A stretch of 64,000 bases of DNA from assembly GCA_963666425.2 (NCBI GenBank), contig OY762825.2, positions 1,536,001 to 1,600,000 of the forward strand, in the 5' to 3' direction. The notes beneath the pieces are model-generated. The model worked only from the letters and a program-made list of their open reading frames with translations, ran no database searches and was not told where the DNA came from. Position 1 is the first letter of the stretch. Each line of letters opens with the position of its first letter. This DNA is from Bacillota bacterium (GTDB lineage Bacteria; Bacillota; JAAYKD01). A program made the position numbers and the translations under genes. Below, piece after piece: positions 956-57,540 of this stretch.

Positions 956-1196
956 TTTTTCCATCCTTTCTTGTCATCAAGAACAGCTTCATCGTCTCTT
1001 CGCAATACAGAAAAGCAATAAGCAAGGTAATTATTCCCAAACAAAGTGCGGCGTGTGAAAGAAAAGGATGATCAGGTTTTTTGCTTCAATCCTATCACAT
1101 TTCGCTTTTTGTCTGCAGAACAATCAATGTTTACCCTCTGATCAAAGGCTCGCCAAACCTTATGAATCGGTGAAATAGAAACATTATATACCAGCC

Positions 1197-1835
1197 ATTG
1201 TTTCGTTGTTCCGGTCGTTTCGTCGTTTCGCTGTTCCGTCGTTTCGCTGTTCCGTCGTTTCGTTGGTAAGTCGTTGTATCGTTTCGCTGTTTCATTGTTT
1301 CGTTGTTAAGTCGTCAAATCGTTTCGCTGTTTACCCATCATCGTGCAACGATCATGTTGCGTTACGGAACGGTCAAGACCGTTCCCTACCTTTGCCCCAT
1401 CGTTGCATCGTTTCGCTGCTTCATTGTTTCGTTGTTAGGTCGTTCAATCGTTTCGCTGTTTACCCATCATCGCGCAACAATCATGTTGCGTTACGGAACG
1501 GTCAAGACCGTTCCCTACCTTTGCCCCATCGTTGTATCGTTTCGCTGTTTCATTGTTTCGTTGGTAAATCGTCAAATCGTTTCGCTGTTTACCCATCGTT
1601 GTATCGTTTCGCTGTTTCATTGTTTCGTTGTTAGGCCGTCAAATCGTTTCGCTGTTTACCCATCATCGTGCAACGATCATGTTGCGTTACGGAACGGTCA
1701 AGACCGTTCCCTTTGCCCCATCGTTGTATCGTTTCGCTGTTTCGTTGTTCCGTTGTTAGGTCGTCAAATCGTTTCATTGCTTACCCATCATCGTGCAACG
1801 ATCATGTTGCGTTACGGAACGGTCAAGACCGTTCC
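1197..1835 (+). repeat. REP-containing tandem array, segment 1 (129-bp unit with 8-bp sub-repeats)
   Basis: Hairpin GGAACGGTC-AA-GACCGTTCC at 1366, 1495, 1691 and 1816; a second hairpin GCAAC-N6-GTTGC; linkers of degenerate 8-mers (TCGTTTCG, CTGTTTCA, TTGTTTCG). Confidence 0.95.
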
Positions 1836-1853
1836 CTCGTATATACTAGTAGT

Positions 1854-2070
1854 GCCAAGGTAACTCATTTACAGGGTACAGGAAGCGAGCCAAAGCCACT
1901 CTTTAGGTATCCAAGGGGTTTGCCCTTTGTGGTATAATTTTGTCAGGCAGAGGTCAACGTACTGTTCCCTGGGAATCGTTCCTGTGATGTAGAGTGTTGC
2001 CTCTGATCTGACAGAAATCTGCGTATTGGCTGGATAGGGTAAAATCCTTGTATTTCACGCGAGGTTGCAG
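1854..2070 (+). ncRNA. Predicted bridge RNA of IS110 copy 1 (target loop 1941-2013, donor loop 2019-2070; 5' end inferred)
   Basis: Nested stems TGTCAG/CTGACA, CAGAGG/CCTCTG, CAAC/GTTG and GGGAA/TTCCT enclose ACTGTTCCCT (1961-1970) and GATGTAG (1986-1992), which match the insertion sites. A second loop holds TGGCTGG and GCGAG, which match the end junction. Confidence 0.85.
1930..1938 (+). promoter_or_regulatory. Extended -10 (TGnTATAAT) inside the IS left end
   Basis: TGGTATAAT directly before the target-binding stem; no good -35. Confidence 0.4.
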
Positions 2071-2127
2071 CTGTCAGCGTCAGAGAGATCATCCTTTGCC
2101 GCATTCCAGTTTGAGGAGTTGCTGTAA

Positions 2128-3300
2128 ATGATTACTTTTGGCGTAGACATCGGTAAATTCCGTCACCAGGCGATCGCGGTGGACGCCAGTGGTCAAGCGC
2201 TGGCTCCCTCGTTTGCATTTGAAAATTCCGAAGAGGGCTTTCAATTGTTTTTGCAGAAGGTCGCTCTTTACCAAAAGCAAGATGCAATTTGCGTCGGCAT
2301 GGAAGCCACCGGTCATTACTGGCTGAATTTTTATTGTGTTTTACTCGATTTAGGAATTGAATTGCATGTGGTCAATCCCCTGCTCACCGACGCCATACGG
2401 CGCATGTCTGTCCGTAAAACCAAGACGGATACGGTGGATTGCGGTTATATCGCGGATGTGATCCGCATGGGACGTTATTCCGACGTAGCGGTACAAACGG
2501 AGGATGTCCAGAATTTACGCGAGTTATGCCGTTTCCGCTGTTCTCTGGTTGATGAGATTGCAAAGCACAAAAACCATGTAATTGGCGTGCTGGATCATCT
2601 TTTTCCGGAATATCACAAGCTTTTTTCAGATATTTTCGGTAAAACTTCGCTGGAGTTGCTCAGCAAGTATCCGTCACCGGATGCCATTCTGAAGCTCGGC
2701 ACAAAGCGGTTGGCTGATTTTTTAGCGAAGCATTCCCGCGGCAGTTTCGGTGAGGAAAAAGCGCTGGAGATCCGCAGCGCCTGCAAACACACAGTTGGGG
2801 TGAATAGAGCAAATGCTGCTCTATGCTTTGAATTACACCAAACCGTGGATCTGATTCAATTCATTGAAGAACAGATTGACGCAATTGAAAAAAAGATTGA
2901 GCAGATCTATTCCCAATGTGAATGCTATCTGGATACCATTATTGGTGTTGGAGTCACCTCGGCTGCGGTGATCTACTCGGAAATCGGCAATATTGATAAT
3001 TTCGAAAATCCGAAGAAACTGGCGGCATTTGCCGGTATTGACCCTTCGATTAAACAATCCGGTAATTTCACTTCAACGCACAACACGATGTCGAAGCGAG
3101 GCTCACCTTATCTGCGCAGAGCGCTCTGGAATGCCGCAACGGTTGCCGCGCAAAAAGATCCGGTCATGTCTGCTTTTTACCAGAAGAAACGCGACGAAGG
3201 AAAAGATTATATGACGGCAATTGGAGCTGTTACACATAAATTATGCAACATTGTTTTCGCTGTTTTAAGGGATAAAAAGCCTTATGTTCCCAGAATATAA
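2128..3300 (+). CDS. IS110-family DEDD transposase/recombinase
   Basis: GVDIGK, GMEATG and KTDTVD (DEDD tetrad); C-terminal Tnp20-type LAAFAGIDPSIKQSG...SKRGSPYLR. Confidence 0.97.
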   Translation: MITFGVDIGKFRHQAIAVDASGQALAPSFAFENSEEGFQLFLQKVALYQKQDAICVGMEATGHYWLNFYCVLLDLGIELHVVNPLLTDAIRRMSVRKTKTDTVDCGYIADVIRMGRYSDVAVQTEDVQNLRELCRFRCSLVDEIAKHKNHVIGVLDHLFPEYHKLFSDIFGKTSLELLSKYPSPDAILKLGTKRLADFLAKHSRGSFGEEKALEIRSACKHTVGVNRANAALCFELHQTVDLIQFIEEQIDAIEKKIEQIYSQCECYLDTIIGVGVTSAAVIYSEIGNIDNFENPKKLAAFAGIDPSIKQSGNFTSTHNTMSKRGSPYLRRALWNAATVAAQKDPVMSAFYQKKRDEGKDYMTAIGAVTHKLCNIVFAVLRDKKPYVPRI

Positions 3301-3335
3301 TTTTCGTTTTGCCACTTGACGTTTGATAGCTGGCT

Positions 3336-4106
3336 ACCTTTGTCCCATCGTTGTATCGTTTCGCTGTTTCATTGTTTCGGTGTTTCGTTGGTAAGTCGTT
3401 GTATCGTTTCGCTGTTTCATTGTTCTGTTCTTATGTCGTCAAATCGTTTCGTTGTTTACCCATCATCGTGCAACGACCATGTTGCGTTACGGAACGGTCA
3501 AGACCGTTCCCTACCTTTGCCCCATCGTTGTATCGTTTCGCTGTTTCATTGTTTCGCTGTTAGGTCGTCAAATCGTTTCGCTGTTTACCCATCATCGCGC
3601 AACAATCATGTTGCGTTACGGAACGGTCAAGACCGTTCCCTACCTTTGTCCCATCGTTGTATCGTTTCGCTGTTTCATTGTTCCGTTGTTAGGTCGTCAA
3701 ATCGTTTCATTGCTTACCCATCATCGTGCAACGACCATGTTGCGTTACGGAACGGTCAAGACCGTTCCCTACCTTTGCCCCATCGTTGCATCGTTTCGCT
3801 GTTTCATTGTTTCGTTGGTAAGTCGTTGTATCGTTTCGCTGTTTACCCATCATCGTGCAACGATCATGTTGCGTTACGGAACGGTCAAGACCGTTCCCTA
3901 CCTTTGCCCCATCGTTGTATCGTTTCGCTGTTTCATTGTTTCGTTGTTCCGTCGTTGCATCGTTTCGCTGTTCCGGTGTTTCGTTGGTAAGTCGTTGTAT
4001 CGTTTCGCTGTTTCATTGTTCCGTTGTTAGGTCGTCAAATCGTTTCATTGCTTACCCATCATCGTGCAACGACCATGTTGCGTTACGGAACGGTCAAGAC
4101 CGTTCC
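3336..4106 (+). repeat. REP-containing tandem array, segment 2
   Basis: Hairpins at 3491, 3620, 3749, 3878 and 4087 (spacings 129, 129, 129, 209). Confidence 0.95.
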
Positions 4107-4124
4107 CTCGTATATACTAGTAGT

Positions 4125-4341
4125 GCCAAGGTAACTCATTTACAGGGTACAGGAAGCGAGCCAAAGCCACTCTTTAGGTATCCAAGGGGTTTGCCCTTTG
4201 TGGTATAATTTTGTCAGGCAGAGGTCAACGTACTGTTCCCTGGGAATCGTTCCTGTGATGTAGAGTGTTGCCTCTGATCTGACAGAAATCTGCGTATTGG
4301 CTGGATAGGGTAAAATCCTTGTATTTCACGCGAGGTTGCAG
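4125..4341 (+). ncRNA. Predicted bridge RNA of IS110 copy 2
   Basis: Same sequence as copy 1. Confidence 0.85.
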
Positions 4342-4398
4342 CTGTCAGCGTCAGAGAGATCATCCTTTGCCGCATTCCAGTTTGAGGAGTTGCTGTAA

Positions 4399-5571
4399 AT
4401 GATTACTTTTGGCGTAGACATCGGTAAATTCCGTCACCAGGCGATCGCGGTGGACGCCAGTGGTCAAGCGCTGGCTCCCTCGTTTGCATTTGAAAATTCC
4501 GAAGAGGGCTTTCAATTGTTTTTGCAGAAGGTCGCTCTTTACCAAAAGCAAGATGCAATTTGCGTCGGCATGGAAGCCACCGGTCATTACTGGCTGAATT
4601 TTTATTGTGTTTTACTCGATTTAGGAATTGAATTGCATGTGGTCAATCCCCTGCTCACCGACGCCATACGGCGCATGTCTGTCCGTAAAACCAAGACGGA
4701 TACGGTGGATTGCGGTTATATCGCGGATGTGATCCGCATGGGACGTTATTCCGACGTAGCGGTACAAACGGAGGATGTCCAGAATTTACGCGAGTTATGC
4801 CGTTTCCGCTGTTCTCTGGTTGATGAGATTGCAAAGCACAAAAACCATGTAATTGGCGTGCTGGATCATCTTTTTCCGGAATATCACAAGCTTTTTTCAG
4901 ATATTTTCGGTAAAACTTCGCTGGAGTTGCTCAGCAAGTATCCGTCACCGGATGCCATTCTGAAGCTCGGCACAAAGCGGTTGGCTGATTTTTTAGCGAA
5001 GCATTCCCGCGGCAGTTTCGGTGAGGAAAAAGCGCTGGAGATCCGCAGCGCCTGCAAACACACAGTTGGGGTGAATAGAGCAAATGCTGCTCTATGCTTT
5101 GAATTACACCAAACCGTGGATCTGATTCAATTCATTGAAGAACAGATTGACGCAATTGAAAAAAAGATTGAGCAGATCTATTCCCAATGTGAATGCTATC
5201 TGGATACCATTATTGGTGTTGGAGTCACCTCGGCTGCGGTGATCTACTCGGAAATCGGCAATATTGATAATTTCGAAAATCCGAAGAAACTGGCGGCATT
5301 TGCCGGTATTGACCCTTCGATTAAACAATCCGGTAATTTCACTTCAACGCACAACACGATGTCGAAGCGAGGCTCACCTTATCTGCGCAGAGCGCTCTGG
5401 AATGCCGCAACGGTTGCCGCGCAAAAAGATCCGGTCATGTCTGCTTTTTACCAGAAGAAACGCGACGAAGGAAAAGATTATATGACGGCAATTGGAGCTG
5501 TTACACATAAATTATGCAACATTGTTTTCGCTGTTTTAAGGGATAAAAAGCCTTATGTTCCCAGAATATAA
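4399..5571 (+). CDS. IS110-family transposase/recombinase
   Basis: Protein identical to 2128..3300. Confidence 0.97.
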   Translation: MITFGVDIGKFRHQAIAVDASGQALAPSFAFENSEEGFQLFLQKVALYQKQDAICVGMEATGHYWLNFYCVLLDLGIELHVVNPLLTDAIRRMSVRKTKTDTVDCGYIADVIRMGRYSDVAVQTEDVQNLRELCRFRCSLVDEIAKHKNHVIGVLDHLFPEYHKLFSDIFGKTSLELLSKYPSPDAILKLGTKRLADFLAKHSRGSFGEEKALEIRSACKHTVGVNRANAALCFELHQTVDLIQFIEEQIDAIEKKIEQIYSQCECYLDTIIGVGVTSAAVIYSEIGNIDNFENPKKLAAFAGIDPSIKQSGNFTSTHNTMSKRGSPYLRRALWNAATVAAQKDPVMSAFYQKKRDEGKDYMTAIGAVTHKLCNIVFAVLRDKKPYVPRI

Positions 5572-5606
5572 TTTTCGTTTTGCCACTTGACGTTTGATAG
5601 CTGGCT

Positions 5607-5796
5607 ACCTTTGCCCCATCGTTGCATCGTTTCGCTGTTTCATTGTTTCGTTGGTAAGTCGTTGTATCGTTTCGCTGTTTCATTGTTCCGTTGTTAAGTC
5701 GTTGTATCGTTTCGCTGTTTCATTGTTTCGCTGTTAAGTCGTTGTATCGTTTCGCTGTTTACCCATCATCGTGCAACGATCATGTTGCGTTACGGA
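5607..5796 (+). repeat. REP-containing tandem array, terminal segment
   Basis: Same 8-mer linker and GCAAC hairpin; breaks off at GCGTTACGGA, just as the next REP hairpin would begin. Confidence 0.9.
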
Positions 5797-5860
5797 TTAG
5801 TAGATGCGGATCCAGCGTAATACCAGTCTTAGGCGTATTATCGCCAACGTACGGGCAGAT

Positions 5861-5884
5861 GTAGGGAACGGTCTTGACCGTTCC
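5861..5884 (+). repeat. Single GTAG-REP, inverted relative to the array
   Basis: GTAG-GGAACGGTC-TT-GACCGTTCC. Confidence 0.9.
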
Positions 5885-5992
5885 GCGTGACTCCATGATC
5901 CACACTCCCGTTTGACATTTACAAAAAAATAAGACAAGCGGAACAAATCCTGCTATAATAGGAAATGGAATAATTTGAAGGAGGATTCAACT

Positions 5993-6547
5993 ATGCAAAA
6001 ATACGCAATTCCTGCCGCTACCGTGTTAGCACCGGTGCCGGCTGTTTTGATTTCCAGCGGTGACTCACCGGAAAATTACAACATCGCTACCGCTTCCTGG
6101 ACCGGCACTGTCTGCAGTAAGCCACCGATGACCTACGTTTCCTTCCGACCGGCCACCCTCTCACAGGGTATCCTCTTACGTACAAGAGAATTCGTGATCA
6201 ATCTGATCACAGAGGACCAATGCGAAATGTTGGATTGGTGCGGCAGAGTCTCAGGCCGGGAACATAACAAATGGCAGGAGGCCGGTCTCACCCCGATCGC
6301 AGCCCAAAAAGTCAAGGCACCCTTAATTGCCGAATGCCCGGTCAATATTGAATGTAAAGTCACGCAAGTCTTAGAACTCGGTTCCCACTTTATGTATCTG
6401 GCGGAAATTGTCGCCGTCAATGCGGATGAAAAGTTTCAGCACGAGGGTAAATTGGATCTCAGCAACTTTAACACCATCGTCAACCGCGGCGGCTTTTATG
6501 TTCGTTTGGGTGAACCGATTGCCCGCATGGGTTTCTCTGTTTTGTAG
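5993..6547 (+). CDS. Flavin reductase family protein
   Basis: PVPAVLISS, EFVINL, APLIAECPVNIEC and GSHFMYLAEI; GAGGA RBS before the ATG at 5993. Confidence 0.9.
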   Translation: MQKYAIPAATVLAPVPAVLISSGDSPENYNIATASWTGTVCSKPPMTYVSFRPATLSQGILLRTREFVINLITEDQCEMLDWCGRVSGREHNKWQEAGLTPIAAQKVKAPLIAECPVNIECKVTQVLELGSHFMYLAEIVAVNADEKFQHEGKLDLSNFNTIVNRGGFYVRLGEPIARMGFSVL

Positions 6548-53972: not shown

Positions 53973-54168
53973 TCAAGTACATTGGGCAGAACCAACAAAA
54001 TAGATAGGTAGACCGATCAAGCACACTGGGCAAAACCAACAAAATGTAGAAGCAAACCGATCAAACACATTGGCCGAACCAACAAAAATATAAAGCAAAC
54101 CGATCAAGCGCATTGGGCAGAACCAACAATAATATAAAGCAAGCCGATGAAGCACATTGGGCAGATGT
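53973..54168 (+). repeat. Degenerate ~44-bp tandem repeat (about 4.3 copies)
   Basis: ACATTGGGCAGAACCAACAAAATA...CCGATCAAGC units ending in GGGCAGATGT-AG at the IS end. Confidence 0.9.
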
Positions 54169-54203
54169 AGCCAGCTATCAAACGTCAAGTGGCAAAACGA
54201 AAA

Positions 54204-55376
54204 TTATATTCTGGGAACATAAGGCTTTTTATCCCTTAAAACAGCAAAAACAATGTTGCATAATTTATGTGTAACAGCTCCAATTGCCGTCATATAATCT
54301 TTTCCTTCGTCGCGTTTCTTCTGGTAAAAAGCAGACATGACCGGATCTTTTTGCGCGGCAACCGTTGCGGCATTCCAGAGCGCTCTGCGCAGATAAGGTG
54401 AGCCTCGCTTCGACATCGTGTTGTGCGTTGAAGTGAAATTACCGGATTGCTTAATCGAAGGGTCAATACCGGCAAATGCCGCCAGTTTCTTTGGATTTTC
54501 GAAATTATCAATATTGCCGATTTCCGAGTAGATCACCGCAGCCGAGGTGACTCCAACACCAATAATGGTATCCAGATAGCATTCACATTGGGAATAGATC
54601 TGCTCAATCTTATTCTCAATTGCGTCAATCTGTTCTTCAATGAATTGAATCAGATCCACGGTTTGGTGTAATTCAAAGCATAGAGCAGCGTTCGCTCTAT
54701 TCACACCAACAGTGTGTCTGCAGGCGCTGCGGATCTCCAGCGCTTTTTCCTCACCGAAACTGCCGCGGGAATGCTTCGCTAAAAAATCAGCCAACCGCTT
54801 TGTGCCGAGCTTCAGAATGGCATCCGGTGACGGATACTTGCTGAGCAACTCCAGCGAAGTTTTACCGAAAATATTGGAAAACAGCTTGTGATATTCCGGA
54901 AAAAGGTGATCCAGCACGCCAATTACATGGTTTTTGTGCTTTGCAATCTCATCAACCAGAGAACAGCGGAAACGGCATAACTCGCGTAAATTCTGGACAT
55001 CCTCCGTTTGTACCGCTACGTCGGAATAACGTCCCATGCGGATCACATCCGCGATATAACCGCAATCCACCGTATCCGTCTTGGTTTTACGGACAGACAT
55101 GCGCCGTATGGCGTCGGTGAGCAGGGGATTGACCACATGCAATTCAATTCCTAAATCGAGTAAAACACAATAAAAATTCAGCCAGTAATGACCGGTGGCT
55201 TCCATGCCGACGCAAATTGCATCTTGCTTTTGGTAAAGAGCGACCTTCTGCAAAAACAATTGAAAGCCCTCTTCGGAATTTTCAAATGCAAACGAGGGAG
55301 CCAGCGCTTGACCACTGGCGTCCACCGCGATCACCTGGTGACGGAATTTACCGATGTCTACGCCAAAAGTAATCAT
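54204..55376 (-). CDS. IS110-family transposase/recombinase
   Basis: About 99% identical to copy 1; motifs intact. Confidence 0.97.
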   Translation of the reverse strand: MITFGVDIGKFRHQVIAVDASGQALAPSFAFENSEEGFQLFLQKVALYQKQDAICVGMEATGHYWLNFYCVLLDLGIELHVVNPLLTDAIRRMSVRKTKTDTVDCGYIADVIRMGRYSDVAVQTEDVQNLRELCRFRCSLVDEIAKHKNHVIGVLDHLFPEYHKLFSNIFGKTSLELLSKYPSPDAILKLGTKRLADFLAKHSRGSFGEEKALEIRSACRHTVGVNRANAALCFELHQTVDLIQFIEEQIDAIENKIEQIYSQCECYLDTIIGVGVTSAAVIYSEIGNIDNFENPKKLAAFAGIDPSIKQSGNFTSTHNTMSKRGSPYLRRALWNAATVAAQKDPVMSAFYQKKRDEGKDYMTAIGAVTHKLCNIVFAVLRDKKPYVPRI

Positions 55377-55433
55377 TTACAGCAACTCCTCAAACTGGAA
55401 TGCGGCAAAGGATGATCTCTCTGACGCTGACAG

Positions 55434-55650
55434 CTGCAACCTCGCGTGAAATACAAGGATTTTACCCTATCCAGCCAATACGCAGATTTCTGTCAGATCA
55501 GAGGCAACACTCTACATCACAGGAACGATTCCCAGGGAACAGTACGTTGACCTCTGCCTGACAAAATTATACCACAAAGGGCAAACCCCTTGGATACCTA
55601 AAGAGTGGCTTTGGCTCGCTTCCTGTACCCCGTAAATGAGTTACCTTGGC
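55434..55650 (-). ncRNA. Predicted bridge RNA of IS110 copy 3
   Basis: Guide loops identical to copy 1. Confidence 0.85.
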
Positions 55651-55668
55651 ACTACTAGTATATACGAG

Positions 55669-55754
55669 GGAACAGTCTTGACTGTTCCGAACGCATCGCA
55701 TCAGTCAGCTTGATATGCTTATGGGTGCGCGGAATGGTCAAGACCATTCCCTAC
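55669..55754. repeat. Inverted REP doublet (REPIN/BIME-like), left GTAG split by IS copy 3
   Basis: GGAACAGTC-TT-GACTGTTCC, 42-bp spacer, GGAATGGTC-AA-GACCATTCC-CTAC. Confidence 0.88.
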
Positions 55755-55807
55755 CTTGCACAATGTTTATAACAAATCTGCAATGGTATGCATATTAACG
55801 CCAAGTC

Positions 55808-55866
55808 ACATTGGGCAGAACCAACAAAATAGATTGGCAACCCGATCAAACACATTGGGCAAATGT
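55808..55866 (+). repeat. ~44-bp repeat (about 1.3 copies)
   Basis: Same unit as 53973-54168, abutting IS copy 4. Confidence 0.85.
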
Positions 55867-55901
55867 AGCCAGCTATCAAACGTCAAGTGGCAAAACGAAA
55901 A

Positions 55902-57074
55902 TTATATTCTGGGAACATAAGGCTTTTTATCCCTTAAAACAGCAAAAACAATGTTGCATAATTTATGTGTAACAGCTCCAATTGCCGTCATATAATCTTT
56001 TCCTTCGTCGCGTTTCTTCTGGTAAAAAGCAGACATGACCGGATCTTTTTGCGCGGCAACCGTTGCGGCATTCCAGAGCGCTCTGCGCAGATAAGGTGAG
56101 CCTCGCTTCGACATCGTGTTGTGCGTTGAAGTGAAATTACCGGATTGCTTAATCGAAGGGTCAATACCGGCAAATGCCGCCAGTTTCTTTGGATTTTCGA
56201 AATTATCAATATTGCCGATTTCCGAGTAGATCACCGCAGCCGAGGTGACTCCAACACCAATAATGGTATCCAGATAGCATTCACATTGGGAATAGATCTG
56301 CTCAATCTTATTCTCAATTGCGTCAATCTGTTCTTCAATGAATTGAATCAGATCCACGGTTTGGTGTAATTCAAAGCATAGAGCAGCGTTCGCTCTATTC
56401 ACACCAACAGTGTGTCTGCAGGCGCTGCGGATCTCCAGCGCTTTTTCCTCACCGAAACTGCCGCGGGAATGCTTCGCTAAAAAATCAGCCAACCGCTTTG
56501 TGCCGAGCTTCAGAATGGCATCCGGTGACGGATACTTGCTGAGCAACTCCAGCGAAGTTTTACCGAAAATATTGGAAAACAGCTTGTGATATTCCGGAAA
56601 AAGGTGATCCAGCACGCCAATTACATGGTTTTTGTGCTTTGCAATCTCATCAACCAGAGAACAGCGGAAACGGCATAACTCGCGTAAATTCTGGACATCC
56701 TCCGTTTGTACCGCTACGTCGGAATAACGTCCCATGCGGATCACATCCGCGATATAACCGCAATCCACCGTATCCGTCTTGGTTTTACGGACAGACATGC
56801 GCCGTATGGCGTCGGTGAGCAGGGGATTGACCACATGCAATTCAATTCCTAAATCGAGTAAAACACAATAAAAATTCAGCCAGTAATGACCGGTGGCTTC
56901 CATGCCGACGCAAATTGCATCTTGCTTTTGGTAAAGAGCGACCTTCTGCAAAAACAATTGAAAGCCCTCTTCGGAATTTTCAAATGCAAACGAGGGAGCC
57001 AGCGCTTGACCACTGGCGTCCACCGCGATCGCCTGGTGACGGAATTTACCGATGTCTACGCCAAAAGTAATCAT
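55902..57074 (-). CDS. IS110-family transposase/recombinase
   Basis: Differs from copy 3 by one residue (A vs V at position 15). Confidence 0.97.
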   Translation of the reverse strand: MITFGVDIGKFRHQAIAVDASGQALAPSFAFENSEEGFQLFLQKVALYQKQDAICVGMEATGHYWLNFYCVLLDLGIELHVVNPLLTDAIRRMSVRKTKTDTVDCGYIADVIRMGRYSDVAVQTEDVQNLRELCRFRCSLVDEIAKHKNHVIGVLDHLFPEYHKLFSNIFGKTSLELLSKYPSPDAILKLGTKRLADFLAKHSRGSFGEEKALEIRSACRHTVGVNRANAALCFELHQTVDLIQFIEEQIDAIENKIEQIYSQCECYLDTIIGVGVTSAAVIYSEIGNIDNFENPKKLAAFAGIDPSIKQSGNFTSTHNTMSKRGSPYLRRALWNAATVAAQKDPVMSAFYQKKRDEGKDYMTAIGAVTHKLCNIVFAVLRDKKPYVPRI

Positions 57075-57131
57075 TTACAGCAACTCCTCAAACTGGAATG
57101 CGGCAAAGGATGATCTCTCTGACGCTGACAG

Positions 57132-57348
57132 CTGCAACCTCGCGTGAAATACAAGGATTTTACCCTATCCAGCCAATACGCAGATTTCTGTCAGATCAGA
57201 GGCAACACTCTACATCACAGGAACGATTCCCAGGGAACAGTACGTTGACCTCTGCCTGACAAAATTATACCACAAAGGGCAAACCCCTTGGATACCTAAA
57301 GAGTGGCTTTGGCTCGCTTCCTGTACCCCGTAAATGAGTTACCTTGGC
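57132..57348 (-). ncRNA. Predicted bridge RNA of IS110 copy 4
   Basis: Guide loops identical to copy 1. Confidence 0.85.
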
Positions 57349-57366
57349 ACTACTAGTATATACGAG

Positions 57367-57449
57367 GGAACAGTCTTGACTGTTCCGCAACGTATCGCAC
57401 AAGTAAACCTAATATGTCTATGAACACGCGGAATGGTCAAGACCATTCC
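57367..57449. repeat. Second inverted REP doublet
   Basis: Same two hairpins with a diverged 43-bp spacer; the second hairpin lacks the following CTAC. Confidence 0.85.
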
Positions 57450-57456
57450 GCGCATC

Positions 57457-57540
57457 TATACTAGTCGTGCCAAGGTAACTCATTGACAGGGTACAAGAAA
57501 CGAGTCAGAGCAACTCTTTTTAGGTATCCAAGCGGGTTGA
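57457..57540 (+). mobile_element. Truncated left-end relic of a related IS110
   Basis: Aligns by eye to 1842-1922 with about 9 substitutions and a 2-nt indel. Confidence 0.8.

Follow-up and report, generated by a model that had tools for sequence, protein, structure and literature searches.

A direct-tandem REP array in a Bacillota genome, very probably amplified locally and hit twice by a REP-targeting IS110-family element

How a dense series of identical hairpins has come to lie between two genes, and whether it serves there as a landing pad for the insertion sequences (IS) found inside it, is the question raised by positions 1197 to 5796 of a 64,000-nucleotide stretch of Bacillota DNA (the window, corresponding to C1:1536001-1600000 of the 3.2-Mb assembly G000). 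The hairpins are repetitive extragenic palindromic (REP) elements, and the inserts are two copies of an IS110-family element. Very probably, the locus is a cluster of a REP family with its REP-associated tyrosine transposase (RAYT), locally amplified head to tail and hit twice by a bridge-RNA-guided IS110 element, the array itself being a side effect of REP dynamics.

The 20-nt palindrome GGAACGGTCAAGACCGTTCC occurs on the + strand in nine exact copies (starts at 1366, 1495, 1691, 1816, 3491, 3620, 3749, 3878, and 4087; together spanning 1366-4106), and no exact match is found in 100 shuffles. It forms a hairpin with a 9-bp stem and a 2-nt loop that folds as single-stranded DNA. A tenth unit is cut off after GGA (5794-5796). 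With both 1,498-bp inserts (1838-3335 and 4109-5606) excised, successive hairpins are spaced by 129, 196, 125, 177, 129, 129, 129, and 209 bp, and a further spacing of 209 bp leads from the ninth hairpin to the truncated tenth unit. The tetranucleotide CTAC directly follows six of the nine hairpins and, once the IS is excised, two more (CT-IS-CTAC); it is absent after the hairpin at 1691, which explains the spacing of 125. Tandem Repeats Finder reports periods of 129, 125, 67, 40, and 8, with units about 92% alike. The array and its immediate surroundings are organized as follows.

1184-5896, + strand: segment missing from the intergenic region of the congener G001, holding the REP array and two IS copies; boundaries placed by alignment near 1183/1184 and 5896/5897
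1197-1330, + strand: leading T-rich octamer microsatellite (period 8, 13.6 copies) with units such as GTCGTTTC and GCTGTTCC; no REP on its left
1331-1837, + strand: array block 1, comprising four REP units (hairpins 1366-1385, 1495-1514, 1691-1710, and 1816-1835) and closed by the target core CT (1836-1837); periods 129 (92% matches) and 125
3336-4108, + strand: array block 2, five REP units with hairpins starting at 3491, 3620, 3749, 3878, and 4087, and CT at the end (4107-4108), containing the longer units of 177 and 209 bp; period 129 (4.5 copies) and period 40 (3.4 copies)
5607-5796, + strand: array block 3, consisting of the last linker, in which the 40-mer is present in 3.5 copies, and of the second hairpin, with the REP hairpin stopping after GGA
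5861-5884, - strand: terminal inverted REP, read on the + strand as GTAG plus hairpin (5865-5884, loop TT)

The linkers between the hairpins are poor in A (14.7%) and rich in T (38.7%) and consist of degenerate octamers. Their autocorrelation, computed for linkers only, reaches 0.57 (lag 8) and 0.56 (lag 40), and in 500 shuffles it never exceeds 0.37 at any lag; the octamer periodicity is the strongest among all 27 REP clusters of the genome. The 177- and 209-bp units, which carry additional octamers and 40-mers, are longer than the 129-bp unit by 48 and 80 bp, i.e., by six and ten octamers, the latter also equal to two 40-mers; the extra 67 bp of the 196-bp unit is no multiple of eight and represents a separate duplication. 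A second hairpin, GCAAC-N6-GTTGC, stands 5′ of all nine REP copies and of the truncated tenth one, and in a DNA fold of one unit only this hairpin and the REP hairpin are formed, with the remainder unpaired. The layout given in the preliminary description, with nine direct-tandem hairpins mostly followed by CTAC, the second hairpin before every copy, a T-rich and A-poor octamer linker, and IS-excised spacings in which 177 and 209 equal 129 plus six or ten octamers, is thus reproduced in full.

The second hairpin (1346-1361 and its repeats) is one compensatory pair away from the outer arms of the REP (GCAAC...GTTGC versus GGAAC...GTTCC). It may be a decayed REP, and the unit would then be a former head-to-tail dimer. 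No other copy of the 105-bp linker exists anywhere in the source genome, and metagenome scans gave 0 matches both for the second hairpin joined to the REP unit and for the octamer linker.

Several other readings of the repeated DNA were considered and rejected. Long open reading frames pass through the array because the DNA is poor in A, and no Pfam family scores above its cut-off in them. As terminators, the REPs are unconvincing, having no T-run on their 3′ side, and terminator-like sites are no commoner than in shuffles; an Rfam scan of 1100-6000 with E up to 1 returned no match. A CRISPR-like array was dismissed on the spacers alone, the “spacers” being about 92% identical to one another. 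The idea that the octamers are copies of the REP 3′ arm is unsupported, since every REP has fewer than three CGTYYC hexamers in its flanking 60 nt, whichever side is taken.

Other clusters show a strong enrichment of arm-like GRRACG repeats 5′ of the hairpin (0.83 per 60 nt versus 0.048 in the genome), and 23 of the 195 REPs have at least three copies of this motif nearby on the 5′ side. Purine-rich 7- and 8-mer microsatellites resembling the REP 5′ arm, (GGAACGA)n, (GGGACGAG)n, and (GGATGACG)n, stand directly 5′ of many hairpins; they are located at 479750-484000, 468100-468980, 530300-536850, and 2001700-2003350 of contig C1 and at 10900-13950 of contig C17. No description of such microsatellites 5′ of REPs was found in those parts of the REP literature that were available.

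The hairpin is not confined to this locus. The genome contains 182 exact hairpins with stem variants CG/CG (117), TG/CA (50), and CA/TG (12) and three mixed ones, so that 179 of the 182 are fully paired variants differing by compensatory substitutions; the three natural stem variants are called a, b, and c below. When one substitution is allowed, the search gives 195 REP copies in 27 clusters of 1-19. CTAC lies 3′ of 175 of them, and in ten more it is interrupted by an IS after CT; beyond this tail a small number of further bases are conserved. All-direct arrays make up 12 of the 27 clusters. The same REP recurs in the other clusters with other private linkers and with unit lengths of 72, 84, 129, 159, and 184 bp. 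These data support the assignment of the hairpin to the GTAG/CTAC-tagged, RAYT-type class of REPs. About half of the REP hairpins of contig C1 (73 of 143) are concentrated between 500000 and 750000, the RAYT locus among them, and contigs C2, C16, and C17 also carry the family.

A transposase fitting this class is encoded elsewhere on the same contig. The single-copy gene at C1:532982-533455, within the REP cluster 530432-536700, specifies a 158-aa Y1 HUH transposase whose best NCBIfam match is REP_Tyr_transpos (“REP-associated tyrosine transposase”, E 4.3e-19) and which scores 28.6 bits against Pfam Y1_Tnp (cut-off 23). TnpAREP proteins of subclass 2.4 have been described as Y1 HUH enzymes with the motifs NH[IFV]H, WQ, and YIxNNP, and REPs inside RAYT genes are published there for the same subclass (Quentin et al. 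2018, PMC6006769). The protein found here has NHVH, IWQKSF (containing WQ), and YIDENP instead of YIxNNP. It thus shares with subclass 2.4 REPtrons the pattern NHVH, WQ, and YIxxNP and a single-copy gene with REPs on both sides, and it differs in that the in-gene REP is decayed both in the source genome and in the congener (EQSTSFPN and EQSKSFPN, respectively), where the hairpin is no longer formed. Judged by these motifs, it fits a subclass 2.4-like TnpAREP and is the predicted cognate of the array REP. The congener gene (G001:C29:4492-4965) is 92% identical and likewise has REPs on both sides (at 4026, 4305, 5063, 5160, and 5302).

Of 401 genomes sampled within the phylum, 34 encode RAYT homologues, and the source genome is counted among them. 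A perfect GTAG/CTAC palindrome lies in frame just 3′ of the HUH strand in 8 of 30 RAYT loci sampled regardless of REPs, and also in L018 and L095, where the in-frame REP is that of the source array itself. The loci with in-frame REPs are L018 (765-788), L095 (301-324), L144, L147, L151, L159, L166, L168, L170, and L171, and seven of these ten have a second copy with at most two mismatches elsewhere in the retrieved stretch. For the L018 homologue, the sole PDB match is 4er8, TnpAREP. The internal REP is the exact point at which the RAYT gene has been deleted or truncated in L107 and L023. The source genome also contains a 245-aa Y1_Tnp protein with a C-terminal extension in two copies (C1:435734-436066 and C8:4493-4825); these probably represent a different class of Y1 transposase because no REP of this family lies near either copy.

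The inserts themselves are two copies of one element, inserted at the same point of two REP units.

1838-3335, + strand: IS110-family element, copy 1, 1,498 bp including one CT core, reading CGTATATAC...GATAGCTGG-CT, without inverted ends
2128-3300, + strand: IS110 transposase gene, 390 aa, with an N-terminal DEDD (RuvC-like) domain (Pfam DEDD_Tnp_IS110 1.8e-40) and a C-terminal Tnp_20 domain (Transposase_20 8.2e-26); its score with NCBIfam NF033542 “IS110 family RNA-guided transposase” is 263 bits (cut-off 140)
4109-5606, + strand: IS110-family element, copy 2, with 0 differences from copy 1 in 1,498 nt; transposase gene at 4399-5571

The genome holds ten full copies of this IS, 98.9-100% identical, with the transposase gene intact in all ten. 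Each copy has the same junctions, hairpin-CT/CGTATATAC on the left and GATAGCTGG-CT/AC on the right, and a single orientation relative to the REP. The one assembled copy in the congener obeys the same rule, which makes 11 of 11 insertions precise. Eight insertions are in REP variant a and two in variant c. Eight of the ten copies form same-orientation pairs in four REP clusters (P ~0.01 under random choice among REPs), and 21 of the 27 clusters have no IS. Differences of 14-15 nt show two of the pairs to be independent insertions rather than duplications; a further pair has 1 nt of difference, and the pair in this array none. It is supported that REP clusters collect several IS copies, and in the best explanation of these data the element is taken to be active. 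The nearest transposase in 400 sampled genomes of the phylum is 48% identical.

A second REP cluster of the window (54167-57538) contains two further IS copies on the - strand (54167-55668 and 55862-57366), which are 1 nt apart in sequence. Each abuts a variant-c hairpin (at 55669 and 57367), whose partner, a variant-b hairpin, stands at a distance of 62-63 bp, and at 57457-57538 there is a piece of the IS left end, 82 nt long and 87.8% identical.

How such precision may be achieved is suggested by the left end of the element. The targeting model in which a bridge RNA carries the guides is taken from the work on IS621 (Durrant 2024, PMC11208160), and the candidate parts of such an RNA here are as follows.

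1930-1938, + strand: putative extended -10 element TGGTATAAT, just upstream of the stem-loop, as read from the letters
1938-2015, + strand: candidate target-binding stem-loop of the bridge RNA (IS nt 101-178), proposed from a fold, a pairing scan, comparative flank/guide repeats, and the guide polymorphism
1961-1970, + strand: predicted left target guide ACUGUUCCCU (IS nt 124-133), in the same stem-loop
1989-1992, + strand: predicted right target guide GUAG (IS nt 152-155), in the same stem-loop

On the 5′ side of the stem-loop, ACUGUUCCCU is identical to the top strand of variant c over the REP 3′ arm and the CT that follows, and it matches variant a with one G·U pair; on the 3′ side, GUAG complements CTAC. 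The IS copy at C1:706183 has C for U at IS nt 126, the very position distinguishing REP variants a and c, which makes its guide a perfect match to variant a, and this copy is inserted in variant a. Among 24 related IS loci from other genomes, 14 have their left flank recurring 91-133 nt inside the left end, with a sequence that varies by element. The guide reading gains support from the nt 126 polymorphism, which fits the REP variant, together with these flank repeats, and a left-end RNA loop carrying the target guides, i.e., a predicted bridge RNA, is supported. For the donor loop, UUGGCU (IS nt 189-194) may be a guide matching the bottom strand of CTGGCT, a short stretch, and GCGAG (IS nt 222-226) may pair with CTCGT, a 5-nt run picked by eye below the 6-nt limit of the scan. 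If the IS ends were joined, they would read TTGACG-N18-TATACT, a putative junction promoter of a circular intermediate.

Several related elements in L180-L202 (with 38-45% identical transposases) have left flanks ending in ...CCTCCTTG that recur 109-128 nt inside, which suggests that this subgroup may target sequences complementary to ribosome-binding sites.

The origin of the array can be approached by comparison with the congener. The array is flanked by divergent nitroreductase and flavin-reductase genes, and on contig C22 of the congener the same two genes are separated by approximately 190 bp that contain no REP. Promoter-like sites adjoin each flanking gene (1059-1030 on the - strand and 5931-5959 on the + strand), and the array lies between them; since these sites stay beside their genes, insertions in the array should be harmless. 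The empty site of the congener dates the array as young and, along with a linker that has no second genomic copy and units that are so much alike, points to a recent local amplification of a REP with its private linker. Among 40 sampled relatives, the hairpin was found in the congener only. The hairpin together with its CTAC, taken as an exact 24-mer, is present in at least 127 stretches; many Clostridia-type families of metagenome-assembled genomes (MAGs) and one Chloroflexi MAG are among the matches listed (L012-L138). Such a patchy distribution would fit a horizontal spread of the REP along with the RAYT gene. The 24-mer stretches often adjoin other types of GTAG hairpins.

The most plausible course of events would thus begin with a REP and its neighboring DNA arriving between the two divergent genes after the split from the congener. 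Head-to-tail amplification into a 129-bp unit would have followed, most likely through unequal recombination or replication slippage between identical direct REPs, and the T-rich octamer/40-mer microsatellite of the linker would have slipped by itself, giving the 177- and 209-bp units. Each unit would present the target ...GACCGTTCC-CT-AC, to be recognized by the IS110 element via the target loop of the bridge RNA transcribed from its left end, with the left guide repeating the REP 3′ arm plus CT and GUAG pairing with CTAC. The IS would then have inserted in two units of what is incidentally a dense patch of IS targets.

A number of points weigh against this account. The guide match is weak when taken alone, because shuffling the left end 1000 times also produced a pairing run of 11 with G·U allowed in 86 cases; this left end matches no Rfam family, and the donor-loop guides are assigned only tentatively. 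REPs of variant b, about a quarter of all, hold none of the ten IS copies, although by hand calculation approximately 2.7 would be expected with wobble permitted. The RAYT scores 68.9 bits, under the NCBIfam equivalog cut-off of 80 (NF047646). The mechanism of array growth is one that we infer, and the work describing tandem REPINs states that none is established for them (Bertels and Rainey 2011, PMC3337134). Finally, the short-read contigs of four public runs break within the array, so its copy number and unit order are neither confirmed nor refuted by them.

An assembly artefact, whether in the tandem arrangement or in the form of a spurious second copy of the IS, is nevertheless hardly credible. 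The two IS copies and their near flanks are indeed identical, and none of the short-read contigs of the four runs spans the array. Yet a 2.9-Mb contig resolves nine dispersed copies of the IS (the tenth is on contig C17), and the unit variants differ at many positions. When run contigs were compared with 600-2200 of the window, the left flank was covered in run X1 without mismatch up to 1286, and several unit-specific pieces matched exactly. The depth of IS words relative to the flank in X1 is 62/7.25, about 8.6, near the ten assembled copies, which, as X1 is possibly the source sample of the genome, is a consistency check and no independent proof. A single contig of runs X3 and X4 connects 1254 with 1400, supported by only 42 nt, which hints at a shorter first unit in a strain that is about 2% divergent.

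Growth of the array could also be enzyme-driven: either the RAYT or the IS110 recombinase, acting with its bridge RNA, would recombine two REP targets on sister chromosomes or within a single molecule, changing the number of units and multiplying the targets of the IS. The same-orientation pairing of eight IS copies speaks in favor of this, as does the identity of the two copies in the array. The units upstream of them share the sub-variant cattgctt, as might be expected had a higher-order unit of 2,271 bp been duplicated, and the identical pair could have originated either in this way or by local reinsertion. Bridge recombinases are able to excise and invert DNA between matching sites, according to Durrant 2024 (PMC11208160), and ISPpu10 has been linked to segmental amplifications in a published abstract. 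On the other side, the 21 IS-free clusters are tandem arrays all the same and 12 clusters are all-direct, and the two divergent IS pairs represent independent insertions, so that we regard enzyme-driven growth as unlikely. Its stronger form, in which REP arrays and the IS110 element are a feedback pair, recombination adding targets and the guide tracking the REP variants (U or C at nt 126) to give an IS-driven, self-expanding satellite, seems slightly less likely still. Just below it in plausibility would be a selected cis-acting element, either an array of protein-binding octamers or a structural or topological insulator between divergent promoters, with incidental IS insertions. It would account for the position of the array exactly between the divergent genes with both promoter-like sites spared and for an octamer periodicity unmatched in any other cluster. 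It is poorly compatible with the absence of the array from the same locus of the congener, with a linker found nowhere else in the genome and in neither of two metagenome scans, with the toleration of two 1.5-kb IS copies inside the array, and with the lack of both an Rfam match and a terminator-like hairpin with a T-run at the REPs. Local amplification of the REP followed by two IS insertions remains by far the better reading.

Much of this is an ordinary meeting of known systems. Tandem REP clusters, in-gene REPs of RAYTs, and REP-targeting IS110 elements are all known already. Bacterial interspersed mosaic elements (BIMEs) consist of alternating inverted REPs with short linkers. The array resembles E. 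coli BIME-2 arrays in that units containing REPs are tandemly amplified in intergenic DNA, and differs from them in having nine direct REPs and linkers of at least 105 bp. Head-to-tail REP clusters reiterated with their flanking DNA have been published (Di Nocera, De Gregorio, Rocco 2013, PMC3733652), and tandem REPINs have been described (Bertels and Rainey 2011, PMC3337134). In comparison with these GTAG-tagged families and tandem clusters, the host lineage is another one and the 105-bp linker has an octamer/40-mer microsatellite of its own. A full-text literature search gave no match, either to the hairpin with one or the other loop or to the hairpin foot joined to the GTAG/CTAC tag. The target of IS621 is ATCAGGCCTAC (Durrant 2024, PMC11208160). 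IS621 of E. coli and ISPpu9/ISPpu10 of P. putida share with the present element a DEDD plus Tnp_20 recombinase, the CT core, the absence of inverted ends, a target formed by the REP 3′ arm and ending in ...CT-AC, and a left guide that repeats the left target; unlike them, the element has a distant transposase, another REP and host, and a bridge RNA that is predicted, with no counterpart in Rfam. The modest novelty consists of the host lineage, the REP sequence, the nested octamer/40-mer microsatellite, and the guide polymorphism matching REP variants.

In the light of these comparisons, the other claims of the preliminary description can be assessed. Its RAYT-type REP is recovered, since the hairpin is genome-wide, CTAC-tagged, and subject to compensatory stem variation, and has a cognate RAYT flanked by REPs. 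Its RNA-guided IS is consistent with the NF033542 match and the predicted REP-matching guides, and insertion at the REP 3′ arm-CT-AC was seen in all copies of both genomes. The architecture, which it had called unusual, is less so, given the published head-to-tail clusters and the many all-direct ones of this very genome. Of the landing pad, the targeting of REPs by the IS and the accumulation of IS copies in clusters stand; the function that the term implies does not, because the data show targeting and not selection, and the landing pad is best regarded as a consequence of REP targeting and not as a demonstrated function.

The locus reveals no new kind of system. It is a clean natural meeting of a REP family, its RAYT, and a REP-targeting IS110 element outside Proteobacteria. 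The 11 precise insertions, the three natural stem variants, and the guide variant provide material for studying how bridge-RNA elements read a sequence with hairpin structure, and an array of this youth could serve to measure the growth of REP clusters.

Two minor observations concern the assembly as a whole. The small contigs C3, C5, C7, C10, C12, C13, and C15 have G+C contents of 0.22-0.63 versus 0.47 for C1, and the stated contamination is 6.85%; some of the assembled DNA probably derives from other organisms. The GC skew places the origin near 1.66 Mb and the terminus near 0.22 Mb, and the REPs, whose copies are clustered in arrays and non-independent, are distributed between the strands as 68 versus 40 on one replichore and 15 versus 20 on the other.

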